This document shows, one piece after another, positions 12,084 through 64,000 of a DNA stretch of 64,000 nt. A program made the position numbers and the translations under genes. The DNA is from an uncultured Chloroflexia bacterium (lineage in GTDB: Bacteria; Chloroflexota; Limnocylindria; Limnocylindrales; CSP1-4), in the NCBI GenBank assembly GCA_963764515.1, contig CAVXSS010000001.1, positions 194,677 through 258,676 on the forward strand, written 5' to 3'. The notes beneath the pieces are model-generated. The model saw nothing but the letters and a program-made list of their open reading frames with translations, searched no databases and was not told the origin of the DNA. Each line of letters opens with the position of its first letter. Within the stretch, counting starts at the first letter, position 1.

Positions 12084-12149
12084 GATACGAGCCGGGGTCC
12101 AGCCCGGTGCCGGTGTCGCTCGGGTCGGCGAGCCGCTACGCTTCGGGCG

Positions 12150-13454
12150 ATGGACCGCTCCCTCCGGGCCGTGCTGGCCGGCACCTTCACGCTCCGGTTC
12201 AGCACCGGCCTGACGGGCGCGATGCTGGCGGCGTACCTCGCGAAGCTCCCCGACCACGGCGGGCCGGTCGTGGCTGCGACCACGCTTGCCGCGCTGCACG
12301 TCACGTTCTACACGGCCGAGCTGGTCCTCTCGCCCGTGTTCGGGTTGCTCTCCGACCGGCTGGGACACCATCGCGTGATGCTCTTCGGCCCGGCCTTCGG
12401 AGCGGCCGCGGTGGTCCTGACCGGCCTCACGACGAATCTCGTCCTCCTGGGTGGCACGCGCCTGCTCGAGGGTGCCTCGACTGCCGCGAGCATCCCATCC
12501 ATCCTCGGTTACATCGCCGCGATCACGGCCGGCAGCGAGATCCTGCGAGGCAAGGCCGCCGCGCGCTTCGAAGGGGCGACCCTGGCCGGGATCGGCATCG
12601 GCTTCGTGGTCGCGCCGCTGCTGTTCGCGGCCCTCGGGCCGGTCGCATTCTTCCTGAACGCGGCGTTCTACGGCGTCTCGTTCCTCATCTATCGCTTCGG
12701 CGTCGTCGACCACGACGCCGAGGAACGGGCCTCGCGACCGGGCGCCGGGACCGGCCCGCGCGTCGACTGGCGCCGGTACGGCGTGCTCCTGCGAAGCTCG
12801 CATGTCTGGCTCCTCGCCCCCACGTGGATCGCGGTCAACGCCGCGATCGGCCTGTGGTTCAGCCAGTCCATCTTCCAGTTCTCGAAAGCGGACCCGCGCT
12901 TCCCGGACCAGTTCCTGCTGCACGGTTTCAGCCCCGTCCAGATCTCCTTGTCGGCCGTGGTCATCGGGTTGCTGTTCGGGGCTGGACTCATCTACTGGGG
13001 CAATCGATTCAAGAACATGCGCCGGACGACGATCATCCTCTACGGCATCCTGGGTGGCGCGGTGCTGGTCGTCGGCGGGGTGGCCATCAACCACGGTGCC
13101 GACCTGCCCATCGTCGTGCCGCTGGCCGGGCTCATCGCCGCGGGCCTCGGCCTGTTCGTCCTTGCCGGCGCGACACCGGCGGCGCTCGGGCTCCTGGCCG
13201 ACATCTCGGAGCGGTTCCCGGCCGATCGTGGGGCGATCATGGGCCTCTACAGCGTCTTCCTCGCGATCGGTCAGATCCTTGGCGCGCTCGTCGGCGGGCT
13301 GGCCGCCGACTGGCGCGGGATCGACGGGCTGCTCGTTGGCACGTTGTCGATGCTGCTGATCGCGCTGCTTCCGCTCGCCCTGTTGCGACGCCAGGAGCGC
13401 TACGTCGGTGGCCCGGGCACCGTGGCGTCGTTCGGCGACGCGCCCCAGACATGA
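12150..13454 (+). CDS. MFS transporter
   Basis: 434-aa protein with ~12 TM segments, and a GLLSDRLGHHRVMLFGP loop typical of MFS motif A. The stop overlaps the ggt start (ATGA). Confidence 0.8.
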   Translation: MDRSLRAVLAGTFTLRFSTGLTGAMLAAYLAKLPDHGGPVVAATTLAALHVTFYTAELVLSPVFGLLSDRLGHHRVMLFGPAFGAAAVVLTGLTTNLVLLGGTRLLEGASTAASIPSILGYIAAITAGSEILRGKAAARFEGATLAGIGIGFVVAPLLFAALGPVAFFLNAAFYGVSFLIYRFGVVDHDAEERASRPGAGTGPRVDWRRYGVLLRSSHVWLLAPTWIAVNAAIGLWFSQSIFQFSKADPRFPDQFLLHGFSPVQISLSAVVIGLLFGAGLIYWGNRFKNMRRTTIILYGILGGAVLVVGGVAINHGADLPIVVPLAGLIAAGLGLFVLAGATPAALGLLADISERFPADRGAIMGLYSVFLAIGQILGALVGGLAADWRGIDGLLVGTLSMLLIALLPLALLRRQERYVGGPGTVASFGDAPQT

Positions 13455-15121
13455 CCGGCGAACGGCCATGGGCGCCGGTCCCGCTCGTCCGGGGCGTCCG
13501 CGGCGCGGTGGTCGCCCCGCACCATCTCGCGACCGAAGCCGGGCTCTCGGTCCTGCGGGCCGGCGGCTCGGCGGTCGATGCGGCCATCGCCACCAATGCG
13601 GCGCTCGCTGTCGTCGTGCCCAGCAGCTGCGGGATCGGAGGCGACGCCTTCTGGTTGACCTGGGACGCTGGCGCCGGCCGCCAGGAGGCCATCAACGGAT
13701 CCGGGCGCGCCGGCTCGCACGCCGACGCCGGCTGGCTCCGCGCGACCGGGCTGACCCAGCTGCCGCGGCGGGGTCCGCTCACGATCACGGTCCCGGGCGC
13801 GGTCCGGTCGTGGGGGGACGCCCACGCGGGAGCCGGCCGACTGTCGCGTGACGCGATCCTGGCCCCGGCCATCGAGCTGGCACGGAACGGGTTCCCGGCG
13901 TGGGACGGGTTCATCGAAGGCGTGGAACGCACTGCCGTGCTGGTCGCGAGCGACCTTGGCCCCGACGCCGGCTTCTTCGAGGTCTTCCGGCCGGATGGCC
14001 GGCCATGGCATCCCGGTGAGCGTGTCCGCCTGCCGGCCCTGGCCGCGACCCTCGAGACGCTCGCCCGGGACGGTTTCGACGCCTTCTACGAGGGCGACCT
14101 TGGCGAGCGCCAGGCCCGGGCGCTGGCCGATGTCGGCGCACTCGTCACCGCTGCCGACCTTCGCTCCCACACATCGACCCGCGCGGACCCGATCGAGGTC
14201 GACTACCGCGGCGTCCGGGTCACGACCCATCCCCCGAACAGCTCGGGGGTGGTCGCGCTGGAGCTGCTGTCGATCCTGTCGAGATTCGAGGCGCCGGGGC
14301 GCGAAGCCTTCGGACCCACGGGAGTCACGGACCCCGCCTGGATCCACCTCGGCATCGAGGCGGCGAAGCTCGCGATGACCGATCGGGACGCCTGTCTCAC
14401 CGACCCGGCCTTCGAGACCGTGCCCGTCGACCACCTCCTCGACCCCGCGTATGCCGCGGAGCTTGCGGCACGGATCGACCCGCGACGGGCCGCCCGGCCG
14501 GCCGCCTCGACCAATCCGCGCGGTGGCGGCACGATCTACCTCGCCGTCGTGGACGGGGACGGCAACGCGGTCAGCCTCATCGAGTCGAACTACATGGGTT
14601 TTGGTTCGGGGGTCGTGGACCCGGCGACCGGCATCCACTACCAGAACCGGGGGAGCTACTTCAGCCTGGACGAGCATCACCCGAACCGCCTCGCGCCGGG
14701 CAAGCGGACCCTCCACACGTTGCTCCCCGGGATGCTGTTCCGTGACGGTCAGCCCGGTCCGTGGGTCGTCGCGGGGTCGATGGGCGGCGACGCCCAGCCG
14801 CAGATCCACGCGCAGCTGGTATCCGCCCTGGTCGACGGTGGGGTCGACGTCGCGACCGCCGTCGCGGCCCCGCGCTGGTACGTCGAACCGTCCGACCACT
14901 TCGCGCCGCCCGTCGACGTTCGACTCGAGCCACGACATGCCCCGGGCGTCGCCGAGGCGCTCGAGGCGATGGGTCATCCGCTGCTCCCCACCGAACCGTT
15001 CGATGGCGCCCTCGGGCACGAGCATGCCATCGAATGTGTCGCCGGCGGACCGGGCGCGTCGGGGGGCTCCCTGGCGGCGGCCACCGACCCCCGGAGCGCG
15101 GGTCTGCCGGCCGTCTGGTAG
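13451..15121 (+). CDS. ggt: Gamma-glutamyltranspeptidase
   Basis: 556-aa part of the 1004-aa track ORF. It carries GGT blocks including the autoprocessing Thr region TIYLAVVDGDGNAVSLIESNYMGFGSG and GSMGGD. Confidence 0.9.
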   Translation: MTGERPWAPVPLVRGVRGAVVAPHHLATEAGLSVLRAGGSAVDAAIATNAALAVVVPSSCGIGGDAFWLTWDAGAGRQEAINGSGRAGSHADAGWLRATGLTQLPRRGPLTITVPGAVRSWGDAHAGAGRLSRDAILAPAIELARNGFPAWDGFIEGVERTAVLVASDLGPDAGFFEVFRPDGRPWHPGERVRLPALAATLETLARDGFDAFYEGDLGERQARALADVGALVTAADLRSHTSTRADPIEVDYRGVRVTTHPPNSSGVVALELLSILSRFEAPGREAFGPTGVTDPAWIHLGIEAAKLAMTDRDACLTDPAFETVPVDHLLDPAYAAELAARIDPRRAARPAASTNPRGGGTIYLAVVDGDGNAVSLIESNYMGFGSGVVDPATGIHYQNRGSYFSLDEHHPNRLAPGKRTLHTLLPGMLFRDGQPGPWVVAGSMGGDAQPQIHAQLVSALVDGGVDVATAVAAPRWYVEPSDHFAPPVDVRLEPRHAPGVAEALEAMGHPLLPTEPFDGALGHEHAIECVAGGPGASGGSLAAATDPRSAGLPAVW

Positions 15122-51470: not shown

Positions 51471-51788
51471 GTGACCTTTGGGCGGGTGGCGAGTGACTTC
51501 GTGAAGATCGACATCGGGCTCATCCGGGGCATCAACGCCGACGTGTCACGCCAGGCACTCGTGGTCGGGCTGCTCCATTTTGCCCGCGCATCGAACTGGC
51601 ATGTCATCGCCGAGGGGATCGAGACGGCCGCCGAGCTGGCGACGTTGAGGGCTCTTGACGTGCGGTTCGGCCAGGGATTCCTGCTTGGGAAGCCGGGAGA
51701 CGCCGCCACCTGGAGCGCGACCGCCACCGGGGTGTCTTCGGTCAGTTCGAGCCCGCGACGACCGCCGCGCCCTACCATGGCTGCGTGA
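51471..51788 (+). pseudogene. EAL-domain C-terminal remnant (~80 codons of a c-di-GMP phosphodiesterase domain)
   Basis: DFVKIDIGLIRG...VIAEGIETAAELATLRALDVRFGQGFLLGKP are the last conserved EAL blocks. No upstream part of the domain appears in any frame. The stop overlaps the DUF72 GTG (GTGA). Confidence 0.5.
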
Positions 51789-52822
51789 GCGACGCCGTCC
51801 ACGACCCCGGCCCCGATCGCAGCGCGGCGCGCGTCGCGGATCTGCCGCCCGATGTCGCCGCGGAGCCCATCCACCTCGGGCCCGGCCCCGCCGATACCGG
51901 CATCGTCCGGATCGGGACCGCGTCCTGGACCGACCCGACGATGACCGCGGCCGGCGTCTTCTATCCCGAGGGCGCCGACTCCGCCGAGGAGCGCCTCGGC
52001 TATTACGCCAGTCGGTTCCCGCTCGTCGAGGTCGACGCGACCTACTACGCGCTCCCCGCCCGGCGGACGGCCGAGCTATGGGTCGAACGCACCCCGCCCG
52101 ACTTCACCTTCGACGTCAAGGCACACGCCCTGATGACCGGCCAGCCGACCGAGACGAAACGCCTGCCGAAGGACCTCCGGGCCGCTCTCCCCGACGACAT
52201 CGCCGCGAAGCCGCGCATCTACGCCAAGGACCTGCCCGATGCGCTGCGCGACGACGTCTGGGCCTGGTTCGCCGACGGCCTCGAGCCGCTCAAGGAGGCG
52301 GGCCAGCTCGGCTCGATCCTGCTCCAGTACCCGCGCTGGTTCTTCACCTCATCGGAGAACCGCGCCCAGATCGAGGAAGCCATCGGTCGCCTGCGGGACG
52401 CGGGGATGACCGGCGCGGTCGAGTTCCGGAGCGCGTCGTGGTTCAACGAGAAGAACATCGAGCGGACGCTCAAGTTCCTCGGCGATCGGGGGATCCCGAT
52501 GGTCATCGTCGATGGCCCGCAGGGCTTCAAGTCGAGCGTGCCCGCGGTCGTCGCCGCCACCTCACCGGAGCTCGCGATCGTGCGTTTCCACGGCCGCCGG
52601 ACGGAGACCTGGGAGGCGAAGGGCATCCAGACCGTCGAGCGGTTCCGCTACCTGTACGACCGCGACGAGCTCAAGGAATGGGCGCCGCGCGTCCAGGAGA
52701 CCGCGGGCCAGGCGAAGGACACGCACGTCCTCTTCAACAACTGCTACGCGAACTACGGCGCGACCAACGCGCTCGAACTGGCGCAGCTCCTGCTCGACCT
52801 TGAGGCCGCCGACTCGTCGTAG
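51785..52822 (+). CDS. DUF72 family protein
   Basis: IRIGTASWTDP ... YALPA ... FRSASWFNEKN, typical DUF72 blocks. 345 aa. Confidence 0.75.
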   Translation: MSDAVHDPGPDRSAARVADLPPDVAAEPIHLGPGPADTGIVRIGTASWTDPTMTAAGVFYPEGADSAEERLGYYASRFPLVEVDATYYALPARRTAELWVERTPPDFTFDVKAHALMTGQPTETKRLPKDLRAALPDDIAAKPRIYAKDLPDALRDDVWAWFADGLEPLKEAGQLGSILLQYPRWFFTSSENRAQIEEAIGRLRDAGMTGAVEFRSASWFNEKNIERTLKFLGDRGIPMVIVDGPQGFKSSVPAVVAATSPELAIVRFHGRRTETWEAKGIQTVERFRYLYDRDELKEWAPRVQETAGQAKDTHVLFNNCYANYGATNALELAQLLLDLEAADSS

Positions 52823-52828
52823 CGACGA

Positions 52829-53362
52829 CTACGTCGAGGCGTCGCGGAGCGCCTCCGCCCGGAGCTTGGCCAGGTACGCCGAGGCACCCTTGTAGTTCGG
52901 CCACGTGACGTCGTGCTCGTACGGCGATGACGCCTCGGAGAGTCGGTGACTGCCAGGTGCAATGGCTCGACCACCAGCAGCAGCCCGCAGTCGCCGGTCG
53001 AAGGTCATGAGGGATCCCTCAACCGCGTCAGCAAGGGCCAGGTACATCGCGTCGTACGAGGTCAAGGAGTGCCGCTCGGCAAAGTCGATCGCCGACAGCA
53101 GCAACGCTCGATCCAACTCGACCGTTTCGAGCTCCATCTCGTCGAGGTCGCGCAGCGCCCGAACGACCTCGGAGGTGGGCCAACGATGACGCCGGATCAG
53201 CGAATTCACGACCTCGAGCCAGAAGTGCGACGGGGTGACGATCCGGCGACGCTCGCGAGTCCATCTGTCAACTGCAATCGCGGCGGCAGATCCTTCGGAC
53301 TCATCGCGAACGATCGAGACCGCCACGGAGGCGTCGATGACGATCGCGGGCAACTCATTCAT
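52829..53362 (-). CDS. vapC: PIN-domain toxin of a type II TA pair (VapC-like) with a C-terminal extension
   Basis: AIVIDASVAVSIV (first PIN acidic residue) ... LTSYDAMYLALA. The ATG overlaps the antitoxin stop (ATGAATGA). Confidence 0.75.
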   Translation of the reverse strand: MNELPAIVIDASVAVSIVRDESEGSAAAIAVDRWTRERRRIVTPSHFWLEVVNSLIRRHRWPTSEVVRALRDLDEMELETVELDRALLLSAIDFAERHSLTSYDAMYLALADAVEGSLMTFDRRLRAAAGGRAIAPGSHRLSEASSPYEHDVTWPNYKGASAYLAKLRAEALRDAST

Positions 53363-53696
53363 GGTCGAGCGGGGGGAGTCCACGAGCCGCACGATCGATT
53401 TGTTCGTCTCGCCGTTCGTATTCGCGATGTCGCCATTCGACCTCGGTCAGGCCATCGTCCGGGGGCGGGTACTTCTCGGCCATCTCCTTGCCGAGTGCGA
53501 CGAGCCGATCGAGGGCGGCCAACCGGCGTCGAAGGCGCTCATCCTGATCGGGATCCAACCGCCGGCCATCCTCCACAGACACCAGGTACGCCAGGGGGCG
53601 ATGGTCGCGCTCGATCAGGATCCGCTCGCCCGCCGACGCGGCGTCGAGGATCTCGCCGAGGCGCTTGCGCATGTCCATCGCCGTCACGGTTCTCAT
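53355..53696 (-). CDS. vapB: Phd/YefM-type antitoxin
   Basis: MRKRLGEILDAASAGERILIERDHRPLAYLV matches the Phd/YefM N-terminal fold. It lies immediately upstream of the PIN gene. Confidence 0.75.
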   Translation of the reverse strand: MRTVTAMDMRKRLGEILDAASAGERILIERDHRPLAYLVSVEDGRRLDPDQDERLRRRLAALDRLVALGKEMAEKYPPPDDGLTEVEWRHREYERRDEQIDRAARGLPPLDHE

Positions 53697-53963
53697 GATT
53701 GATCATGATAATCGTATATCATGGTCGGTCGAGGCGCCACGGCGCCCGGCCAGCCGGGCGGGCGTGCTTCCCAGACAGCACGGGGCGTCCCAAGGGCCTG
53801 ATCGACCATGCTGGGTGCCCATTCGGTGTCTGGTGGGCACGCGTGCGCGCCCAACCCGCTCGATGCAACGGTTCAGTGCCATGGTGCTGTCTGCCAGGCA
53901 CGCGCACGATCCCGGCCCAAATCCATGACGTCGCGCAGATATCGCTGTCGTAGGCTATCGCCT

Positions 53964-54578
53964 ATGAGTGCGAACGCCGTGGCTGGCTTCCTGCCGAGCA
54001 CCTGGGGGCTGCATTTCGCGAACAACTATCCGTCGGGGCCCACCGTCAAGCTCGGGCCCCTCGATCCGCGCTGGGTCGGCATCGGCGACGCGAGTTCGGG
54101 CCTGTGCGGGGGGATGAGCTGGTACGTGCGCGACGCGTTCGCGGCGAAGCGCCCGATCCCGCCCGACACGACCGCCCCGGCCAACGGCACGCCGCTGTTC
54201 AAGGCGATCGTCCGGAACCAGGTCCAGTCGCTCTACTGGCTGAGCGTCCCGCTGCGGTTCTACTGGCTATCGGCATTCGTCGGCGGCAAGCCCGGCCGCC
54301 GGGCGGTCGACCATGAGTGGGCCAAGATCACCGGCGCCATCGACGCCCAGAAGCTGCCGATCATCGGGCTCATCCGCAAGTCGTCGTGGAACCCGTTCAA
54401 GCTGACCTCGAACCATCAGGTCCTCGCGTACGCCTACGACGACGATGGCACGACGCGCCACCTGAAGCTCTACGACCCGAACCACCCCGACGACGACACG
54501 GTCGTGATCACCATCGACGCATCCGGCCTCAAGCAATCGACCGGCGAGGACCTGCTCGACCTCTTCAACGCGGGGTAG
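53964..54578 (+). CDS. Hypothetical protein, putative papain-fold cysteine peptidase
   Basis: 204 aa. Candidate triad Cys (GLCGGMSWY), His (SNHQVLAY, ~112 residues later) and Asp (YDPNHPDDD, ~16 residues later). This spacing recalls YopT/AvrPphB (C58)-type enzymes. Confidence 0.35.
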   Translation: MSANAVAGFLPSTWGLHFANNYPSGPTVKLGPLDPRWVGIGDASSGLCGGMSWYVRDAFAAKRPIPPDTTAPANGTPLFKAIVRNQVQSLYWLSVPLRFYWLSAFVGGKPGRRAVDHEWAKITGAIDAQKLPIIGLIRKSSWNPFKLTSNHQVLAYAYDDDGTTRHLKLYDPNHPDDDTVVITIDASGLKQSTGEDLLDLFNAG

Positions 54579-54949
54579 GAGGAGACAAGGGACTGGGGTC
54601 CAACGAGCGCGCCTGCTTGGAGCAACCGTCGGAATTGGGCGGTGATAGCGGAGACTTGATCGGGGCTCGGCCAAGCCGCCCGTCCGGTTGGCAGCAGCAG
54701 AGGTCGTCCCGCGAACACGGGTGGTTGATCGACACCGATGCGGTGACGGCCGCAGCCTCCCTGAAGTGCTTGCTCGATACGTTCACGACGAAGTCCGACA
54801 ATCAATGATGCGGATGGGTGCGACGCCCGCCGACAAGCGATCGACGCAGATCGAGTTCACGAATTGACTGCTCCGCTTCATGAGCAGCGCCAAGACAAGC
54901 GGGCCAGCGTTTGATGACGCCATCGACATCTCGGGTACCTTTCGAGCCT

Positions 54950-57700
54950 GGGTGACCTGACAACCGGAGATCGTCCTCCCATCGAAGGGACACGCTAGTC
55001 GGAGACCCTGCGGTCAAGGGCACAACGACTTCCAGATTGGAACGGTCGGTCGTGAGATCGAGAGTGCCGATCGGATCGATCTCTTGTGTGCGTTCGTACG
55101 GTTCGCAGGGCTTCGGCTGATCCGACCGCAGGTACAAGATTTCCTCCTCCGTGCTGACCAAATCCGGCCAACGCAGCGACCGGCCTAAGGAGCGCCGAGC
55201 CCTCGACGACCCTCAGGCCATGGAACCAAGGTCAGGACCCGTAAGACTCGCAAACACGACTGTACGCGGAGGCCTGGCTCTTTCATCGCGATTCCGGCTA
55301 CCACACCGCATATGTCGGGTCATCGAACCTCACCCATTCGGCCCTGCTAGACGGCCTCGAATGGAACATTCGCAACGGCCATCGACGACGCGTCGCGTCA
55401 TCGCATCCGCGACTTCGAGCAGTACTGGAATGAACCGGAATTCGAGTCATACGACCCTCGTGTCGACGGAGAGCGCCTGGAGCAGGCCCTCAACCAGCAG
55501 AAGGGCATGACGCTCGCACCCGAGGCGTTCAACATCTCAATCGAGTTTGGGCCCAAGCCGTTTCAGCAAGAAATGCTCGAGGCGCTCGCGGCCGAGCGAC
55601 AGCGTGGCCACATGCGAAACCTCGTTGTCGCGCCAACTGGAACCGGGAAGACCTGGGTATCCGCCTTCGACTACAAGCGCCTGCGGAGCGAGGGATTGGA
55701 CCGCCTGCTCTTCGTGGCTCACAGAGACGAGATCCTGCAGCAGAGCCAACAGGTCTTCAGGTATGTCCTCGACGACATGTCATTCGGCGAACGTCACGTG
55801 GGAGTCGAACGACCGGCAATCGGCGATCATGTCTTCGCTTCGATTCAGTCGTCATCGACCTCATACGCCCGAGGTCGGTACGACCTCGTAGTCATCGATG
55901 AGTTCATCACGCCGAGTTGACCAGACGTGCCCGAATCTCCAGGATCTGTCGACCACAGGTCTTGCTAACTAGGCGACCCCGGATACGCGCCGGATGACAG
56001 CACATTCGTTGACGGTTCGACAACCGGATCGCTTGCGACATGCGACTGTGGCAGGCGCTGGATCAGGGCCTGCTCTCGCCGTTCCACTATTTCGGCGTTC
56101 ACGACGGTACCGATCTACGCGGCGTTGCTTTCGAGCGTGGGCGGTACGCCCCCGGCGAGCTCGAGGGCATCTCACCGGAGACCAGTCCGCGCTCGTCGAA
56201 GTCTCGATTCCGCCCAGGAATGGGTGCTGGACGGAACGAAGATTCGGGAACTCGGGTTGTGCGCCGGGGTCGCGCACGCCCAATTCATGGCCGACCAATT
56301 CAACCAAGCGGGCTTGCCTGCAGTCGCGCTGCATGGTGGTTCGCCTCGTGACGTCCGCGTCAATGCCGTTAGGCAGCTTCGAAGAGGCGAACTGCGAGCC
56401 ATCTTCACGGTCGACATCTTCAACGAAGGTATCGACATCCCGGAGGTCGATACGATCCTCCTACTCCGACCCACGGAGAGCGCGACCATATTTCTTCAGC
56501 AGCTAGGCCGGGGTCTGCGCTGGGCCGAAGGCAAGACCGTGCTGACGGTCCTCGACTTCATCGGTCAGTCCAACGCCAAGTATCGGTTTGATCTCCGGTA
56601 CCGCGCGATCATGGGCGGGACCCGCCAGCAGCTGCGACGAATGATCGAAAGTGGCCTCCCACAGGGGCCGCCCGGTTCCGCGGTGCGATTAGACGTGATC
56701 GCCCAGGAAATCGTCCTCGAGAACGTCCGGAGCAGCCTGCGACTCAGTCGGCGGGAGCTTGTCGACGATCTGCGTGGGATGCCTGCTAACACGACGCTGG
56801 GCGAGTTCCTGGCAGCAAGCGAACACGAACTCAGTGACGTCTACTCGAGCCCAGGCCAGACCTTCATGTCGCTGCGACGGGCTGCCGGGCATGTCCGCGG
56901 ACCCGCCGATCCAATGGAACAGGACGGGTCGAAGGCGTTGGCGCGGATCCTCCATGTGGACGACGAGGAGCGATACGCGCATTGGACGCGATTCCTCAAC
57001 GGTGGTCCGATTGATACGGACATTGCCAGCCGCGAAGGGCGCCTCAACCTGATGCTCTTCGCCGCGTTGGGACATTGGAAACGGCCCGTGACTGATCTCG
57101 CGACCACCTTGGACGCGTTCCGCGAGAATCCGGCCCTCCGGGATGAGCTCGGCCAGCTGTAGAGGTCTGCGGGACCTAACCGCTCGGAGACTCGCCCGGT
57201 CAAGCGCCTCGGGGCCGGTTCCGTTGCACAGCCACGCTACGTATGGCCTTTACGAGTTGATCGCTGGTTACGGCATGATCAGCAAGGAGCGGCTCCGAGC
57301 GAATCGTGAGGGATTGGCCTGGGTCCCGGAACAGCAGACTGACCTGTTCTTCGTGACCCTGAACAAGTCGGATGACGACTACTCGCCAACGACCAGGTAT
57401 CAGGACTATCCGATCTCCCCAACTTGATCCAGTCGAGGCGGACACGGCGTCGTCGCCCACTGGTCGGCGCTACATCAATCATGTCGCACTTGGGTCGAAG
57501 ATCGTCCTCTGCGTTCGCGAGAACCGGAAAGATGGGCGTGGTGAGTCGGCGCCCTACGTCTGTCTCGGACCCGCCAGATTGGTTCGACACGAGTCGGAGA
57601 AGCCGATTAGATCGTTTGGGAACTCGAACGGCCAATGCCAATCGAGATGTTCCAGTCAGCGAAGGTGGCCGCCGGCTGAGCTCGGCAAGTGTACCAGGCC
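54950..57700 (+). pseudogene. Decayed gene for a PLD-like nuclease / SF2 helicase / DUF3427 protein, broken by multiple frameshifts and stops
   Basis: Pieces lie in three frames. PLD/HKD fragment: IDLLCAFVRFAGLR ... AWLFHRDSGYHTAYVGSSNLTHSALLDGLEWNIRN. Helicase motif I: NLVVAPTGTGKTW, then DEF at 55900. Motifs V-VI: TVDIFNEGIDIPEVDTILLLRPTESATIFLQQLGRGLR. DUF3427-like tail: YSPTTRYQDYPISPT / RRYINHVALGSKIVLCVRE...PYVCLGPARLVRHE. Confidence 0.65.
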
Positions 57701-57951
57701 AAGTCGAGGTTCGGGTAGCGAGCGGCGAGTTCGTCGAGGGTGAACGAGGCAACGCCGAGGCGGGCTTCGGTTCCGTCCAGATCGGTGATGACGGCGTCCA
57801 CCAACAGCTCGGCATCCCCAGGTCGAAGTTCTATGTTTTCGAGGACGAGCTTCACGATCTGCGGCAGGGTCTGGGCGACCTCGTCGCGGAGTTCCCGGCC
57901 GTACGCTCGAATGACGATGTTCAGTGCCCAGCGACGACTGGCTGATCCCAT
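57607..57951 (-). CDS. Hypothetical protein (114 aa)
   Basis: Protein-like ORF (LPQIVKLVLENIELRPGDAELLVDAVITDLDGTEARL) at the right edge of the lower-GC island. No family recognised. Confidence 0.3.
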   Translation of the reverse strand: MGSASRRWALNIVIRAYGRELRDEVAQTLPQIVKLVLENIELRPGDAELLVDAVITDLDGTEARLGVASFTLDELAARYPNLDLAWYTCRAQPAATFADWNISIGIGRSSSQTI

Positions 57952-58025
57952 GCCGTGACACTACCGGGATCGCTGGAGATCGTCGATCGGGCAAATCGCA
58001 CCAGAGTGCCCGTCCCCGAGCCTGC

Positions 58026-59270
58026 TCAGAACATCGTCGAGTTCCAGGGGGCCAACGCCGTCGTGAACAACGCGTCGGCGGCGGCTAACCCTCCCGGGTG
58101 ACACTCCCGCACTCGGCCCGCGGCGGCAAGCTGGGCAAAGCTGAACGCCCCGAGGTACACCGCCGCCAGGTCGCGGATGTCCATCGAGAGGTCCGGCGCG
58201 GCGCGGGCGCCGGTGACCTTGGCCGGGCTGTCGGCCTCCTTGACCGTCAGCCGCCACGTGCCGGCGTTCCAGGGGCAGAAGTCGTCGGTCACCTCGAAGA
58301 CCGGGCTGCCGGGGCCACGGTATGACCGGCCCTCGAGGGCGGCCGGCAACTCGATGATCCGCAGCCACATCGCGTCGCTCACGGTCGCGGCGAGGCGGCG
58401 CGGCTCGGTGATCATGAGTTGCAAGGGGTGGGGCGTCGGGCCGCGCCAGGTCCGGACGATGCCGACGAGGTCGATGCTGAAGACCCACTGCCAGAGCGCC
58501 TGCTCCGACGCGGCGTCGACGCCGATCAGCTCAAAGACCGTCACGATGCTCTTCGGTCCGCGGCTGTCCCAGTCCGCGTTGATCCGGTAGATGACGTACG
58601 CCCGCGCCTCGCCATCGACCTCCAGCAGCGCCCGCACCTTGGGCCCGTTGCCGCGGCGCATCCAGTCGGCGTCGTGGACGAGCTGGTAGCGCCACTTCGC
58701 GTCGGTGCGCGTCAGCGATCCGGCGATCGTCGTGCGGCGCGCCTCGAAGATCGGCGGGAATCGATCGGCCGCTTCGTCGCGATCGACGATCCGGACCCGC
58801 CCCTTCGACTCCACCGGTCGCGCGAACACGATCTTGTCCGTCGGCGCCTCGATCTCGGTCTGGAGGGTCGCGGGCCCGTACCCGAACCGCTGGTAGATCG
58901 CTGCCTCGGACGCCCACAGGATCGCGACCGGCTCACCGCGCTCGCGCGCCTGCTCGAAGAGGCGGGTCATCATCAGGCGCAGGATGCCGCGACGGCGATG
59001 CGTGGGCATGACCCCGACCTGGGTGATCCCGGCCGCCCCGACCTCGCCGCCCGGTGTCGTCATCCGGAACGTGAAGGCACCCGCCATGCCGACGGGCGCG
59101 TCGCCGTCGAAGGCGCCGAACAGCCGATCGAGCTCGGTGACCTGGCGCTCGTTCTCGATCTCCGGCGCCGTGTACTCCTCGCCGAAGGCGATCGCGAGCG
59201 GCGCGAGGAAGGTCGGCAGGTTCTCTTCGGTCGGGGTCCGAAGGGTGATCCCGGTGAGGTCGTCTGGCAC
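58026..59270 (-). CDS. eis: Eis-like GNAT family N-acetyltransferase (GNAT + SCP2-like C-terminal domain)
   Basis: GVMPTHRRRGILRLMMTRLFE parallels the Eis acetyl-CoA-binding PTHRRRG block. ~415 aa. The GTG at 59270 has an AGGA 10 nt upstream. The track ORF starts at 59354. Confidence 0.7.
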   Translation of the reverse strand: MPDDLTGITLRTPTEENLPTFLAPLAIAFGEEYTAPEIENERQVTELDRLFGAFDGDAPVGMAGAFTFRMTTPGGEVGAAGITQVGVMPTHRRRGILRLMMTRLFEQARERGEPVAILWASEAAIYQRFGYGPATLQTEIEAPTDKIVFARPVESKGRVRIVDRDEAADRFPPIFEARRTTIAGSLTRTDAKWRYQLVHDADWMRRGNGPKVRALLEVDGEARAYVIYRINADWDSRGPKSIVTVFELIGVDAASEQALWQWVFSIDLVGIVRTWRGPTPHPLQLMITEPRRLAATVSDAMWLRIIELPAALEGRSYRGPGSPVFEVTDDFCPWNAGTWRLTVKEADSPAKVTGARAAPDLSMDIRDLAAVYLGAFSFAQLAAAGRVRECHPGGLAAADALFTTALAPWNSTMF

Positions 59271-59465
59271 GTGCGCATCCTGCCACGCCGATGAGCCGGT
59301 GGTAAGGGGCGTCTGCTTGACTGCGTTCGTGGCTCGCGCAGCTGTCAGTTGCACGTTCGGGATGAACGCCTCGTGGACCGTTTCCCAGACTGCAGATCCT
59401 GCAGGATTCGGCTTGGGTTCACGCTCGTTCGTTCGGGATGTGCATCTGGGAGAGGCGGGTCCCGG

Positions 59466-59538
59466 ATCGGGGAGCTGGCTGAGCCCCGGGGAGCTGGCTC
59501 AGATCGGGGAGCTGGCTCAGACGGGTGGGAGCTCCTGC
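59466..59538. repeat. Tandem ~18-19-bp repeat (3 full copies + 1 degenerate copy)
   Basis: CGGGGAGCTGGCTGAGCC / CCGGGGAGCTGGCTCAGAT / CGGGGAGCTGGCTCAGACG / GGTGGGAGCTCCTGCAGG. It overlaps the last codons and stop of ligD and extends into the eis upstream region. Confidence 0.6.
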
Positions 59539-62270
59539 AGGTCGGTCTGGGCCGCAGCGAACAGGTCGCCGCCCTCCGCCACGCGATCGAGGATGGTCCG
59601 GATCGTCCAGCGGTCCGGGCGAAGGTCAGCGTCGTCCAGCTCGTCCCAGGCGATCGGGGCGGACACCGGCGCGCCTGCGGCCGGTCGCACGGCATACGGC
59701 GCGACGAGCGTCTTGATGCTCGCGTTCTGCGTGTAGTCGAGGCGGGCGCGGCCCTTGCGGGCCTCCTTGGCCCACTCCCAGGAGACGAGTTCGGGCACCG
59801 TCGAGCCGACGGCGCGACTGACCCGCTCGACCCAAGCGCTCGTCTCATCGAACCCGTACTTCGGCTCGATCGGGATCCAGACCTGGATGCCGCGCTTGCC
59901 GGTCGTCTTGGGATAGCCACGGACGCCGAGGTGCCCCAGGGCCGTCCGGTAGAGGCGGGCCAGCACGAGCGTCTCGTCCCAGGTGGTCCGCTCCCCGGGG
60001 TCGATGTCGATGTACGCGAACGTGGGTCGCCAGGGGTCCGGGAGGCGGCCGGTCCAGGCATGGATCTCGAAGCTCGCCTGGTTCCCGAGCCAGGCGAGGG
60101 CCGCGGCCCGGTCCGCAAGAAGGTGGTCGTTGGCGTCGCGGCCACTGCGGCCGTCGACACCGGTCTCGTGCCAGCGGGTAAGCCACTTCGGGGCGGTCCC
60201 GGGGATGTCCTTCTGCCAGAAGCCGGGCGCGCCCGCGCCGTTGGGGAATCGCTGGAGGTTGAGCGGCCGGCCGTCGAGGTGGCGCAGCATCGCCGGGGCG
60301 ATCCGCGCGAAATAGCCGATGAGCTCCCGCTTGGTGATCGGGCCGCCGCCGTCCGGCTCACGCGCCTCGAACAGCGGCTTGTCGAGGTTGGTCAGCTTCA
60401 GCTCGTCGCCACCGGCCTTCCAGACCCCTTCCTTGCCGAGCGCCGCGAGGGCCGTGAGCTCGCCATCGGTGACGCGCCAGGACGCCGGGGCGTCGGCGGG
60501 GTCGGCGCCCGGGTCGGCGCCGGTTGTGGCCGTCGATCGCCCGGCCGATGTCGATGCCTTGGCCATGCGCGAATCCTGCCTCGGTTCTGTCGTTTCGGGC
60601 GCCGCGGCCTCGGCGGCACGGACCGCGGTGGTCGTGGCGACCGCGGTCTCGCGCACGACGGCGGTCGGGTCGCGGTCGGGCTCGATCCCCTTGAACGCGG
60701 ACTGGCGAACCATGTTGTCGCGGGACCAGCCGCCCAACTCGGCCCGGATGACCAGCTCCGGCCGGACCCAGGTGATGTTCGCGAGGTCGCCGCCCCAGCG
60801 GCCGCGGTAGTCCTTGGGCGGCGCCGGATCGAACGGCGGCTCGTCGGTCGCGAGCGGTCGCATCCGCGCCAGCAGGTCCTTGCGGATGGCGCCCGTGAAT
60901 CCCGAGCCGACCTTGCCGCTGAAGCGCAGCTTGCCGTCCTCGTAGACCCCGACCGCGAGCGCCCCGAGGTCGCGCGCATTCCCCTCCCCCGGCGTCCAGC
61001 CACCGACCACGAGCTCCTGCTCGGGGCGGATCTTGAGCTTCAGCCAGGCGTTGGTCCGCCGCCCCGGCTCGTACCGCGACCGGCGGAGCTTGGCGATGAC
61101 GCCTTCGACCTGGTTCGCCTTGGCGGCCTCGTAGAAGGCGAGGCCTTCACCCTCGATGTGCGTCGCGAACCGGACCCGCGGGTGCTCCTTGAGCACGCTC
61201 CGAAGCAGGCGCTTGCGATCCTCGAGTGGCACGTCGAGCAGGGACCGACCGTCGAGGTACAGCAGGTCGAAGACCTGGTAGACGAGCCCCGAGGCCGTCT
61301 TCGCCCCGAGCTTGGTCTGGAGCAGCGAGAAGTCGGGCCGGCCGTCCTCGTCGAGCGCGACGACCTCGCCATCGACGATCGCCTGGCGCGCCTCGATCCA
61401 CGACGGCGGGGTCAGGAGCCTCGGGAAGTAGGTCTCGGCGTCGTTGAGGTTGCGCGTCCAGATGCGGACCTTGCCATCGGCGACGACCGCCTGGACGCGA
61501 TAGCCGTCCCACTTGATCTCGTAGAGCCAGTCGGGGTCGCTGAAGGGCTTCGAGGCCAGGGTCGCGAGCATCGGTTCGATGTGCGCTGGCATCGGGGCCG
61601 CGACGGCGCCGGCGAGGTCGATCTCCGCGCTGGCCGCCGGCGCCTGGCCGTTCCAGAGGGCATCTCGGTCGGCCTTGACGTCGTCGTTGGTGCGGCCGGT
61701 CTTGACGCTCTGCGGGTGGTCCTCCGCGTCCCAACCGGTCTGCGCGGCCTCGTCGCGCTTGTGGATGAGCAGCCACTGGTCGCCCTCGTCGTCCTCGAAC
61801 GCCTTGGTCGGCGCGGTGCCGGGACGGCGACTGGTCCGGACGATCGTGAAGCGGCCTTTCAGCTTCTGGCCGTTGAGCACGAACTTGAGCTCGCCGTTGG
61901 GGATGGCGGTCGTCGCGTCGGTGGTCGGGGCCTCCGCCTCCCACGTTCCCCAGTCCCAGACGATGACGTCGCCCGCGCCGTACTGCCTGGCCGGGATGAC
62001 GCCCTCGAAATCGAAGTACTCGATGGGGTGGTCCTCGACGTGGACCGCCATCCGCCGGACGGCCGGGTCAAGGGTGGGTCCCTTCGGGACGGCCCAGCTC
62101 GCGAGCACGCCGCCGACCTCGAGGCGGAAGTCGTAGTGGAGGCGGGTGGCACGATGCCGCTGGACCACGAAGCGGCCACGGCTCCGGCCGATCTCGGCGT
62201 TCGGCGCTCCCGGGGCCGGCTCCGGGGTCTTGGTGAAGTCGCGCTTACGGAGGTATTCCTCGAGGGGCAT
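59517..62270 (-). CDS. ligD: Multidomain ATP-dependent DNA ligase D (phosphoesterase - ligase - polymerase/primase order)
   Basis: PE domain (FVVQRHRATRLHYDFRLE), ligase (YEIKWDGYRVQ, KxDG adenylation motif) and a C-terminal LigD-Pol domain (KRGIQVWIPIEP). ATG at 62270. The track ORF has a 104-aa non-protein-like extension. Confidence 0.9.
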   Translation of the reverse strand: MPLEEYLRKRDFTKTPEPAPGAPNAEIGRSRGRFVVQRHRATRLHYDFRLEVGGVLASWAVPKGPTLDPAVRRMAVHVEDHPIEYFDFEGVIPARQYGAGDVIVWDWGTWEAEAPTTDATTAIPNGELKFVLNGQKLKGRFTIVRTSRRPGTAPTKAFEDDEGDQWLLIHKRDEAAQTGWDAEDHPQSVKTGRTNDDVKADRDALWNGQAPAASAEIDLAGAVAAPMPAHIEPMLATLASKPFSDPDWLYEIKWDGYRVQAVVADGKVRIWTRNLNDAETYFPRLLTPPSWIEARQAIVDGEVVALDEDGRPDFSLLQTKLGAKTASGLVYQVFDLLYLDGRSLLDVPLEDRKRLLRSVLKEHPRVRFATHIEGEGLAFYEAAKANQVEGVIAKLRRSRYEPGRRTNAWLKLKIRPEQELVVGGWTPGEGNARDLGALAVGVYEDGKLRFSGKVGSGFTGAIRKDLLARMRPLATDEPPFDPAPPKDYRGRWGGDLANITWVRPELVIRAELGGWSRDNMVRQSAFKGIEPDRDPTAVVRETAVATTTAVRAAEAAAPETTEPRQDSRMAKASTSAGRSTATTGADPGADPADAPASWRVTDGELTALAALGKEGVWKAGGDELKLTNLDKPLFEAREPDGGGPITKRELIGYFARIAPAMLRHLDGRPLNLQRFPNGAGAPGFWQKDIPGTAPKWLTRWHETGVDGRSGRDANDHLLADRAAALAWLGNQASFEIHAWTGRLPDPWRPTFAYIDIDPGERTTWDETLVLARLYRTALGHLGVRGYPKTTGKRGIQVWIPIEPKYGFDETSAWVERVSRAVGSTVPELVSWEWAKEARKGRARLDYTQNASIKTLVAPYAVRPAAGAPVSAPIAWDELDDADLRPDRWTIRTILDRVAEGGDLFAAAQTDLQELPPV

Positions 62271-62520
62271 GGCGTGGAGTGTGCCCGAAGACGGGACCGC
62301 CGGTGCGAGACCCGGCTCTTGCTCTGGGTGCAAGTAACAGCGGCCGTGAGCCCTCAATGGGCCACGTTCTGCTCCATGAGGTCTGGGTGAGCCCTCGTGC
62401 GAGTGACCAGCGGCGGCAACTCCTGCGTCGGGGACACGAATCCGGGCGGTTCGGGGTCCGGAGTGGGCTCGGGCAGCTGGTACTTGCTGTGCAGGCAAGG
62501 CGTCAGGGCGAGACAGGCCG

Positions 62521-64000
62521 TCAGGCCGGGTGGTCGCCTTCCCTGGTCGGTTTCGGCTGGAGGTGCTGCCAGAGACCGGCACTGACCAAGAGCAGCAACC
62601 CGAGCGCGATCAGCGATACGACACGGTACGCGACGTCGAGCGCGGACAGGTCGAATAGGAACACCTTGGCCGTGGCGAGCGCCAGCAGCCCCAGCCCTGC
62701 CTGGCGAAGGCTCGCGTATCGGAGCCGCAATCCGGCCACGAACCCGATGACGCCGAGGACCGCCCAGAGGACGCTGAGCGCCACCTGGCCCCACGTTCGC
62801 AGCTCGTTGAGCGAGACGGTGCCGCCGACCTGGCTCGCGACGGCGTCGACCAGGCCAACCGACAGCAGGTAGACGAGCGTCACCCCGGCCGCCAGCCATG
62901 TCCATCGAGCCCACGGCAAGTCCTTCGCGGACCACGCGATGGCCGCCAGTCCGAGGCCGATCCCCCCAAGCGCCGCGGCCGACTGGAGGGCGACTAGCGG
63001 TGCGACGCCGTCTTCACCGACGACGAGGCGTGTCGGCGGCGCGACGAGGGCGATCGCCACCGCCACGGCGCCTGCGATGAAGACCAGATTCGAGGCGAGG
63101 AATGTCAGCCGTCCCTCGCCATCGACACGTGTCAGAAGCGTCAGCCCGGCACCGATCGCCACCCACAGGATCGTGACCAGCCAGGGGTCGACTTCGAACG
63201 CGATCGCGTACGCCATCACGACGGCGGCCGCGATGACCGAAGCCCGGCGCACGAGGGCGTCACCGTGGAGGAGGCCGGCAAGAACAACAGCCACGGCCAG
63301 GGTGATCGCCGCGATGCCCGCCGGGTCGGCGAACGGGATCCCGGTCGGTGCCGACGCGAACGGCCTGCCGTACACCCCCTCGACGAGGACACCGGCCGCG
63401 AGCGCACCGACGAGTAGCGAGGCGACGAACAGCAGCTCATCGACCCACGGTCGCCAGGGTCCGATCTCCTTGAACTCGATCGGGATCAGACCGTCGACCT
63501 GCCACGGGATCTCGGCCGACGGGAGCCTCGGGAGGAGCCGCCGGACGCCGACCCCGACGACCATCAGGAGCGAGAGGGCCACGACGAGCTGGGGATCGTC
63601 CAACCTCGTCGCGGCACAGATGGCCGCGATGACGACGCCGAACGCCGAGAGCGCGGATCGAAGGCTCCGGTCGCGGACGAACCAGACCCCGGCGGCGACC
63701 CCGAGCAGGAAGAACCCGAGTGCCGCACCCGGCCCGTCGACGAACGGCAGCCCCTCGACCTGGATGCGCGCGGGCAGGTAGAGGTCGATGAGCGCCGCGC
63801 CCGCGAGCCCGTAGAGCACCGCCGATGCCAGCGCGCTGTAGGGGTGACCGCGGCGCGCCGCGAGCCAGGCCAGAGCGGCGCCCTCGGCGGTCCACGCAAC
63901 GGGCACCAGCGGGGCACCCAGCTGCGCCGGAGCCGCCATCGTCAGGGCCGCGATCCCGGTCCCGATCGTGAGCAGGCCGAAGAGGTTGCGCTCGCCGTCG
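62521..64000 (-). CDS. DUF2339-like large polytopic membrane protein, partial (continues past the window end)
   Basis: Continuous TM-rich reading frame with no stop up to position 64000. Confidence 0.5.
   Translation of the reverse strand, partial: DGERNLFGLLTIGTGIAALTMAAPAQLGAPLVPVAWTAEGAALAWLAARRGHPYSALASAVLYGLAGAALIDLYLPARIQVEGLPFVDGPGAALGFFLLGVAAGVWFVRDRSLRSALSAFGVVIAAICAATRLDDPQLVVALSLLMVVGVGVRRLLPRLPSAEIPWQVDGLIPIEFKEIGPWRPWVDELLFVASLLVGALAAGVLVEGVYGRPFASAPTGIPFADPAGIAAITLAVAVVLAGLLHGDALVRRASVIAAAVVMAYAIAFEVDPWLVTILWVAIGAGLTLLTRVDGEGRLTFLASNLVFIAGAVAVAIALVAPPTRLVVGEDGVAPLVALQSAAALGGIGLGLAAIAWSAKDLPWARWTWLAAGVTLVYLLSVGLVDAVASQVGGTVSLNELRTWGQVALSVLWAVLGVIGFVAGLRLRYASLRQAGLGLLALATAKVFLFDLSALDVAYRVVSLIALGLLLLVSAGLWQHLQPKPTREGDHPA

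Follow-up and report, generated by a model that had tools for sequence, protein, structure and literature searches.

A damaged, putative SauUSI-family restriction cassette in one of two variable slots between conserved genes of an uncultured Limnocylindria bacterium

In the 'immigration control region' of Escherichia coli and in similar hotspots, restriction and abortive-infection cargo is exchanged between fixed genes, without an integrase. SauUSI is a single-chain, ATP-dependent enzyme which cuts DNA containing 5-methylcytosine (5mC) or 5-hydroxymethylcytosine (PMC3141236). Its residues H119, K121, N139 and E150 are needed for activity, the H119A and K121A mutants are inactive, and the enzyme is toxic in Dcm+ E. 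coli (PMC3141236). Here we describe the remnant of a gene that appears to belong to the SauUSI family, found in a stretch of 64 kb from an uncultured Chloroflexia bacterium of the Limnocylindria (contig CAVXSS010000001.1; hereafter the window, meaning this whole stretch). The remnant lies in a region of lower G+C content, at positions 52829-58000, which the original prediction had read as one acquired island, old and decaying, carrying a vapBC pair, an orphan papain-fold open reading frame (ORF), a dead helicase gene and a small unknown ORF. From the comparison with relatives we consider it likely that the region is instead a composite, in which conserved genes frame two separately variable slots and a cargo of the SauUSI family was recently shared and is damaged as recorded.

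The relatives were 80 loci found with the DUF72 protein of the window (best match, 93% amino acid identity), all in soil metagenome-assembled genomes labelled Chloroflexota or Limnocylindria, to which the further contigs L082-L088 were added (L082-L084 and L088 from the European Nucleotide Archive, ENA). The presence or absence of genes was tallied after tblastn searches of the window proteins on the 80 loci; the cargo of the slots was identified by Pfam and PADLOC scans, together with the gene tables of the further contigs. The assemblies of the relatives are Nanopore-only metagenomes, obtained with R10.4.1, super-accuracy basecalling, Flye --meta and one round of Medaka, with an assembly coverage cut-off of 8 (PMC12313526).

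The main block of low G+C content in the region is the putative restriction cassette, in which the following parts can be recognised:

54579..57690, plus strand: putative SauUSI-family type IV restriction cassette, main low-G+C block, assigned by PADLOC and colinearity
54880-57679, plus strand: remnant of the restriction gene
about 54644-54867, plus strand: remnant of an upstream ORF of 77 amino acids
55263..55271, plus strand: catalytic HxK site of the PLD domain, read Y-A-E, inside damage patch 2
55507..55920, plus strand: N-terminal helicase fragment with motif I APTGTGKT (Pfam ResIII, E 1e-19); the ORF ends in damage patch 4
56125..57162, plus strand: C-terminal helicase fragment plus linker, the longest surviving ORF (Pfam Helicase_C, E 5.6e-13)
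57143..57679, plus strand: DUF3427 remnant (Pfam E 0.0095, below the curated cut-off), with its stop TGA at 57677-57679

Three fragments of the window gene match the PADLOC model mREase_IV (PDLC03659), over profile positions 216-344 (E 1.9e-30), 442-763 (E 5.3e-71, the largest fragment) and 780-855 (E 5.4e-13), and they are colinear with the intact genes of L006 (1048 amino acids), L086 (907 amino acids) and L088 (956 amino acids). In these three intact alleles Pfam recognises PLDc_2, ResIII, Helicase_C and DUF3427, the last with E 3e-17 in L006. The L006 ortholog spans the whole mREase_IV profile (E 3e-258) and matches PDB 7clg, which we take to be SauUSI, over residues 130-677 (phmmer E 4.7e-85), with a second match in DUF3427. 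Like SauUSI, the intact alleles join a PLD nuclease (HxK...N...E), a superfamily 2 (SF2) ATPase and a C-terminal DUF3427 in one chain. They differ from it in their host, a Chloroflexota of the Limnocylindria, and in the extra, variable N-terminal part of about 80-130 amino acids in L006, which is split off as the 77-amino-acid ORF in L088; moreover, the window copy is unreadable. Judged by these matches, the window cargo belongs to a known family, that of the SauUSI-type type IV restriction genes, its activity here being putative. By analogy with SauUSI, DUF3427 would read 5-methylcytosine, the SF2 ATPase would translocate and the PLD nuclease would cut modified foreign DNA. The search of the ORFs against defence profiles that had been proposed for this region, as one where uncharacterised modules might reside, thus ended at a described restriction model; current understanding is not overturned, the cargo being a known enzyme type.

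As recorded, the window sequence cannot encode the enzyme, since it holds no single uninterrupted polypeptide of about 950 amino acids. The PLD domain is recognisable but frameshifted and lacks the catalytic HxK, which is intact as HAK in L006 and L087 (RLHAKAWLF) and reads RLYAEAWLF in the window. The region of motif II (DEFH) of the helicase falls in damage patch 4 and is followed by a stop, and two deletions break DUF3427, one of 11 nt at 57438 and one of 1 nt at 57608. The change of HxK to YxE is not taken as evidence of selection for loss of the nuclease, as both changes lie inside the generally damaged patch 2.

At the start of the gene (window 54865-54882; L088:98-346), a TGA ends the 77-amino-acid ORF, which matches the N-terminus of the 1048-amino-acid L006 protein. 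In the sub-lineage formed by the window, L087 and L088, an ATG five codons past that TGA restarts a gene of 956 amino acids, intact in L088. The N-terminal 80-130 amino acids or so thus seem, by this comparison of alleles, to be dispensable or separately encoded. Two ORFs antisense within the cassette remnant, of 78 amino acids (54565-54801) and 119 amino acids (54802-55161), were treated as spurious; the second has no family match.

The damage to the window copy is unevenly spread. The identity of the copy to the L006 allele is 73%, and this comparison shows 9 stops and 23 gaps that shift the frame. The comparison with L088, a 3.8-kb ENA contig bearing the intact 956-amino-acid gene, resolves the lesions into nine patches, with an additional one upstream:

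54910-55068, 55139-55275, 55356-55427 and 55828-56035: damage patches 1 to 4
56161-56198, 56224-56273, 56634-56688, 57139-57205 and 57401-57464: damage patches 5 to 9
about 54619-54705: additional upstream damage patch

Of the 1951 alignment columns outside the nine patches, 4 are mismatches and 2 are gaps (99.7% identity); of the 925 inside them, 153 are mismatches and 79 are gaps (74.9% identity). The longest perfect runs reach 464 nt; at a uniform rate the probability of 400 clean columns is 1e-15. Against L088 there are 28 indels, 24 of them deletions and 4 insertions, and 27 shift the frame, so that the multiply frameshifted PLD/helicase/DUF3427 gene reported at the outset is borne out. 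Its supposed age is not. In orf86, next to the cassette, the identity to L088 drops to about 86%, and beyond orf86 homology stops; as the cassette is far more alike between the genomes than its flanks are, it would have been shared among them recently, and an old, decaying acquisition does not fit with 99.7% identity to an intact allele outside clustered lesions.

By codon position, the window-specific changes are distributed 58:62:31, against about 56:59:35 expected, that is, neutrally, which rules out an import of the patches from a functional homolog. When L006 and L086 are used as outgroups, 103 changes inside the patches are derived in the window and 6 in L088, the latter number being about the chance expectation. 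The patches nevertheless share 39 derived states with L088, of which 30 fall at third codon positions, and the window was hit at an equal rate, 18%, whether or not the site varies among functional alleles. The asymmetry, the shared derived states and the equal hit rates together argue that the patches are L088-like sequence to which random changes, obeying no clock, were added, which rejects both gradual decay and an overwritten old pseudogene. The ratio of transitions to transversions among the lesions is the baseline of the lineage, with about 5.5 substitutions per indel. Two other sources of the patches were tried: L006-like or L086-like alleles were ruled out because the states do not match those alleles, and micro-inversions or copies of other window sequence were ruled out by comparison. 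This patchy, clock-free damage is the one odd feature of the locus, and whatever its origin, the label "old" is wrong.

L087 is about 99% identical to L088 and has seven small frameshifts; it shows small lesion clusters of the same type as the window. The left ends of L087 and L088 coincide with the start of the damaged segment of the window. These two contigs (L087, 1-3758; L088, 1-3839) come from different samples, and both start in the last codons of the homolog of the 204-amino-acid ORF and end past orf86; they behave like a repeat edge of an assembly graph, and the cassette would thus sit in more than one genomic context in those soils. In the public record a helicase product of 312 amino acids is 100% identical to that of the window, and the record calls fragments only.

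A separate observation bears on the reliability of frameshifts in this dataset. The LigD gene of L006 (L006:16202-19013), compared with those of L005 and L084, shows 25-27 frameshifting indels, mostly of a single base, with intact neighbouring genes. Many of them recur at the same positions whichever of the two relatives is used, so that L006 seems to be the outlier; either a local assembly error or a decaying ligase of non-homologous end joining (NHEJ) would produce this picture.

The cassette occupies slot B (54579-57690), between the gene of a 204-amino-acid protein on one side and orf86 and an Eis-like gene on the other. The genes on its right are:

57607..57951, minus strand: orf86, gene of a conserved 86-amino-acid protein, here extended to 114 amino acids; right edge of slot B
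58026..59354, minus strand: Eis-like GNAT acetyltransferase (Pfam Acetyltransf_9/17 and SCP2_2); native right flank
59517..62582, minus strand: LigD, NHEJ ligase (Pfam LigD_N, ligase and Prim-Pol domains); conserved anchor

In relatives, slot B holds the following cargo:

L001, L002 and L003: C5-methylase, Vsr and MutH-like pieces, between them
L002 and L083: AspBHI_N-type 5mC-dependent endonuclease
L005, L008, L024, L082, L084 and L085: helicase of 641 amino acids, SLFN group 3 (PADLOC PDC-S41, E 4e-121)
L007: AIPR plus a C5-methylase
L006, L086, L088 and the window: gene with PLD, ResIII, Helicase_C and DUF3427

In some of these contigs the context of the slot is incomplete: the PDC-S41 gene of L082 is flanked by the homolog of the 204-amino-acid ORF only, L087 and L088 offer its last codons as left flank, and L086 has orf86 and Eis on one side and an A2M-like gene on the other. 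The foreign cargo mostly has a G+C content at third codon positions (GC3) of about 0.70-0.74, with the exception of the AIPR and C5-methylase genes of L007 (0.89-0.92). With conserved flanks and a cargo that differs between relatives and consists mostly of defence genes, slot B is a defence hotspot in this Limnocylindria clade. The expectation that uncharacterised defence modules reside in the region was right in part, as five different defence cargos are found in the slot of the relatives, and wrong in part, as no uncharacterised module was found. Slot B resembles the 'immigration control region' in its exchangeable restriction or abortive-infection cargo between fixed genes and in the lack of an integrase. 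It differs in its flanks, a papain-like candidate on one side and orf86, Eis and LigD on the other, and in that it belongs to one clade of soil genomes and that its mechanism of exchange is inferred. Restriction enzymes that depend on 5mC and C5-methylase systems replace one another here between the same flanks, a pattern expected from a conflict based on methylation. The slot also puts a hotspot on the map for the Limnocylindria, an abundant and uncultured class of soil Chloroflexota.

In L008, an ORF of 249 amino acids without family match lies directly after the PDC-S41 helicase (L008:14811-15560), with an equivalent gene in relatives; it is possibly the second component of a candidate PDC-S41 defence system.

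Taken together, these data would be explained as follows. DUF72, the 204-amino-acid protein, orf86, Eis and LigD would form the conserved frame of two slots. Slot A, to the left, would hold a phd/PIN operon in which alleles have exchanged the toxin-antitoxin core. The cargo of slot B would be exchanged by homologous recombination through the conserved flanks, as its distribution suggests, and an exchange of this kind would account for the missing integrase, tRNA and repeats. As to the damage, we lean somewhat towards an error-laden Nanopore-only consensus of a segment that varies between strains and is repeated in the metagenome, and real inactivation is the less probable of the two. This leaning towards a technical origin is due to the Nanopore-only assemblies of the relatives, the repeat-edge boundaries of L087 and L088, the lesion clusters of L087 and the frameshifts in LigD of L006. 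In general, a "dead gene" from a Nanopore-only metagenome calls for a comparison with near-identical alleles before decay is concluded.

Several points weigh against this explanation. R10.4.1 with super-accuracy basecalling and a cut-off of 8 would not be expected to yield patches in which the error amounts to 25-60%, and the remainder of the 64-kb window is clean, with about 50 intact ORFs. The lesions resemble those of natural pseudogenes (about 5.5 substitutions per indel, 24:4 in favour of deletions, transitions to transversions at baseline). The Nanopore-only origin is documented for the relatives, and the window itself would come from the same MFD-LR dataset, as the 100% identical public fragment suggests. 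The exchange by flanking homology is deduced from the distribution of the cargo, and its junctions show up as no more than a break in identity at about 54579 and another at about 57690. Finally, the hotspot is limited to the close clade: distant relatives have a native membrane-protein gene at this place, or nothing.

The strongest rival, tentative but serious, is that the damage is real, and that a freshly imported type IV gene was wrecked fast by clustered mutation, possibly being toxic in a host that methylates cytosine. The deletion bias, the ratio of substitutions to indels and the baseline ratio of transitions to transversions are all consistent with it, and so is the catalytic HxK that reads YxE; SauUSI is known to be toxic in Dcm+ E. 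coli (PMC3141236), and C5-methylase and Vsr systems are present in slot B of relatives. The public record likewise calls only fragments, and the Flye coverage cut-off of 8 speaks against a consensus from single reads. Yet one lesion would be enough to inactivate the gene, whereas 28 indels are recorded together with some 150 substitutions, all within patches that add up to about 1 kb, and the remaining 2 kb differ by 0.3%. No clock is compatible with the ratio of 103:6, the 64-kb window has neither a C5-methylase nor a Vsr gene that would be a reason for toxicity, and the changes in HxK, lying inside a patch, are no independent evidence of selection. To our knowledge, no biological process changes a sequence locally by 18-60% and leaves its neighbourhood at 0.3%. 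That a process not yet recognised struck a cassette just arrived, filling stretches of 40-220 nt with dense clusters of small deletions and random substitutions and sparing the DNA between them, appears unlikely to us; such a process might be tied to the NHEJ machinery of the adjacent LigD or to the integration of damaged environmental DNA.

A mosaic would be another way to obtain such a copy: an old, decayed resident pseudogene would have been partly overwritten by an L088-like allele, through gene conversion or cross-strain polishing. Blocks of about 100% and about 75% identity do alternate, and the lesions in the divergent blocks look natural. However, the patches still carry the 39 derived states of the L088 lineage, 30 at third positions, and have the equal 18% difference rate at variable and invariant sites. 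An independent old copy would diverge roughly symmetrically, whereas the changes proper to L088 amount to about none (6, near chance), and the window states are unlike the L006 or L086 alleles. This makes the mosaic very improbable, and we return to the composite of conserved genes and variable slots, considering now its remaining parts.

The right edge of slot B is marked by orf86. In the window the stop codon of this gene is lost, codon 87 being TAC at 57691-57693, and the homology of orf86 to its relatives begins at 57692. The family comprises 140 homologs, nearly all of exactly 86 amino acids and 66-90% identical. Wherever its context was examined, orf86 occupies the side of slot B nearer to Eis, whatever the cargo; being found beside differing cargos, it is a flank and not a cargo. 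The AlphaFold2 model (mean predicted local distance difference test, pLDDT, 90.3) consists of one long helix and a three-stranded sheet, and a fold search with it gave no significant match. Searches of PADLOC, NCBIfam and PHROGs returned only a chance-level match to PDC-M50A, for the form of 114 amino acids. In L002 (14902-15769), the first 70 or so codons of orf86 are present as a tandem duplicate, and one of the two copies continues in frame into a fragment of an AspBHI_N-type (5mC-reading) endonuclease, possibly the scar of a recombination at the edge of the hotspot.

The left edge of slot B is a gene that had been counted as cargo:

53964..54578, plus strand: native conserved gene of 204 amino acids (alias ORF256), assigned by GC3 (0.94) and synteny

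It starts at ATG 53964, the mechanical ORF of 256 amino acids beginning too early. Homologs of this ORF, with 38-87% amino acid identity, are present in 27 of the 80 loci, syntenic between DUF72 and LigD, and in 16 loci they immediately follow DUF72; in distant relatives the homolog is followed by a convergent LigD, either directly or past a native membrane-protein gene. With its native GC3 and its synteny in 27 loci, the 204-amino-acid gene is native and not cargo, and it separates the two variable slots.

The corresponding family has at least 3,164 homologs, all of about 205 amino acids and without Pfam domain. C48, H151 and P172 are shared by all of 53 sequences compared, D171 and N173 by nearly all. 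In the AlphaFold2 model (pLDDT 86.8), Cys48 opens helix 48-60 and His151 opens strand 151-160, so that Cys, His and Asp/Asn stand in papain order and at the corresponding structural positions. As in papain-like peptidases (cathepsins, staphopain, C39-like/BtrH_N), the Cys is at a helix N-terminus, the His at a strand start about 100 residues further on, and an invariant Asp-Pro-Asn follows the next strand. Unlike them, the protein has no significant sequence or structure match, and it is conserved beside DUF72 and LigD, not as cargo: Foldseek gave weak hits only (best E 0.037), mostly cathepsins but also staphopain and a type VI secretion system effector; no profile of Pfam, NCBIfam or PDB, and no defence or phage profile of PADLOC or PHROGs, matched, and no signal peptide was evident. 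The papain-like guess of the original prediction is plausible on the model, a reasonable label although unproven, while the gene as orphan cargo gives way to a native gene of a large family. Together with orf86, the small unknown ORF of the original prediction, which turns out to be a conserved protein extended by stop loss, two conserved unknowns are thus exposed, a Cys/His/Asp family of about 205 amino acids with more than 3,000 members and a protein of 86 amino acids at the border of a hotspot.

Slot A (52823-53963) is variable between DUF72 and the 204-amino-acid ORF, and in the window it contains the toxin-antitoxin pair:

51785..52822, plus strand: DUF72 gene (Pfam DUF72, E 9e-57), conserved left flank, outside any insert
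52829..53362, minus strand: vapC, PIN toxin of 177 amino acids from the ATG at 53362 (Pfam PIN, E 1.5e-17)
53355..53696, minus strand: phd/yefM-type antitoxin of 113 amino acids (Pfam PhdYeFM, E 2e-9; NCBIfam phd_fam)
53697..53735, minus strand: likely vapBC promoter/operator, sigma-70-like TCGACC-16-TATCAT, judged from sequence only
53724..53924, no strand assigned: window-specific insert of about 200 nt between phd and the 204-amino-acid ORF, with a 20-nt inverted repeat, 53762-53781 / 53884-53903

DUF72 orthologs are found at 69-93% identity in the 80 loci. The mechanical ORF of vapC starts further out, at GTG 53392. By inspection of the translation, the acidic residues of the PIN domain are D (IVIDAS), E (WLEVV), D (SYDAMY) and D (TFDRRL). 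The antitoxin gene lies directly upstream and overlaps vapC by 8 nt (ATGAATGA, at 53355-53362), which confirms the tightly coupled Phd/PIN pair first proposed. A promoter-like site with a palindrome at 53705-53732, in which ATGATA-N6-TATCAT covers the putative -10 element, is the only such site within 52.7-58.1 kb. The pair is similar to described VapBC modules in having the antitoxin first, an 8-nt overlap, the PIN acidic residues and a palindrome over the putative promoter, and it differs from them by the conserved C-terminal tail of about 48 amino acids of the window VapC and by its mosaic alleles. Indeed, when compared with L002, L003, L004, L007 and L024, the toxin tail, the antitoxin N-terminus and the promoter are 80-93% identical in nucleotides, against no more than 45-65% for the core of the toxin and the C-terminus of the antitoxin. 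At the level of the aligned alleles, this suggests that the interacting core was replaced while the regulatory frame around it stayed fixed. The allele of L082 is of the same type as that of the window (Phd 87% and VapC 63% identical). No defence-specific or phage match for vapBC was obtained in PADLOC, NCBIfam and PHROGs.

The pair is present between DUF72 and the 204-amino-acid ORF in 7 of the 80 loci, as well as in L082 and L084. In L006 slot A is empty, with 60 nt between DUF72 and the ORF homolog; in L008 it contains a Kelch gene plus vapBC. L001 holds another ORF instead of vapBC, presumably PhzF-like as recognised from its sequence, and the spacing in L005 is equal, so that we take L005 probably to be likewise.

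The composition of the region agrees with separate units. In 1-kb windows outside 52829-58000, the baseline G+C content is 0.710 (standard deviation 0.020, minimum 0.653). It falls to 0.600-0.633 over 54.25-58.0 kb (z -3.8 to -5.5) and to 0.647 over 53001-54000, and comes back up to 0.67-0.69 across 53.5-54.5 kb. The dip that had been described is therefore real, by sliding-window G+C and by GC3, but discontinuous. At codon level, GC3 is 0.883 ± 0.035 in the 34 other window ORFs of at least 150 amino acids that served as baseline. The values are 0.78 for vapC, 0.75 for phd, 0.72-0.73 for the helicase fragments and 0.76 for orf86, which upholds a foreign-looking composition (0.72-0.78), and 0.93 for DUF72, 0.94 for the 204-amino-acid ORF, 0.92 for the Eis-like gene and 0.89 for LigD. 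A low G+C content due to AT-biased decay was ruled out, since the G+C content is 0.613 in the window copy of the cassette and 0.613-0.617 in the intact alleles, and is unchanged inside the damage patches; the low G+C content is thus a property of the cassette itself.

A single acquired island of about 5 kb, comprising vapBC, peptidase, helicase gene and small ORF and now old and decaying, is a reading that we rate as even slightly less probable than the mosaic. In its favour, the depression lies contiguously between two native genes and contains no mobility genes. It was correctly stated that neither integrase nor tRNA flanks the region: no integrase was found among the neighbouring genes, no tRNA in the whole 64-kb window, no Rfam match at E <= 1 over 52-59 kb, and, as att sites, only short direct or inverted repeats at chance level, nothing convincing; the integrase, tRNA target or direct repeats of a classical island are thus absent at 52829-58000. 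When the block was looked for as a unit in the relatives, its parts were seen to vary independently: L006 has the cassette without vapBC, and L003, L024 and L007 have vapBC without the cassette, while the 204-amino-acid gene, native with a GC3 of 0.94, is kept in 27 of the 80 loci. Moreover, the cassette is 99.7% identical to an intact allele outside the patches, and orf86 is a conserved flank, present beside other cargos. An "island" drawn from composition in the sequence alone can thus merge independent units and absorb a native gene. The remnant of a prophage or integrative element is the least probable of all these readings, since the low G+C content and a toxin-antitoxin pair as possible addiction module stand against the lack of any phage-specific match in PHROGs (generic helicases and one weak terminase-family match, E 3e-6, to the helicase domain), of integrase, tRNA or att-like repeat, and against a cargo replaced between fixed flanks in relatives.

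Some smaller variable segments were also noted in the same neighbourhood. Between Eis and LigD, a pair formed by a ribbon-helix-helix antitoxin and a PIN toxin is present in L083 (3945-4608) and L002 (17201-17902) and missing from the window. An ORF of L024 (16926-17273) shares N-terminal sequence with this pair, as seen by sequence likeness only. The gap between Eis and LigD would therefore be a further small variable slot.

The insert of about 200 nt at 53724-53924 is absent from L082, L003, L024, L007, L002 and L004. It has no second copy in the window or the related loci and no Rfam match, and its fold z-score is -2.1; it is possibly a scar similar to a miniature inverted-repeat transposable element, or a structured RNA. 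To the left of slot A, an ORF of 105 amino acids (51471-51788) matches only the last third of an EAL domain (Pfam positions 166-236 of 236). This segment of about 320 nt lies between an upstream gene of 602 amino acids and DUF72; as it is missing in L082 and there is no room for it in L001-L006, it would be a third small insertion specific to the window, or a gene remnant. Finally, far from the region studied, an ORF of 758 amino acids (11193-13469) has a GC3 of 0.77, the lowest outside that region, and only its C-terminal 280 amino acids match a family (DegV); its long N-terminal part may be due to a mis-called start.

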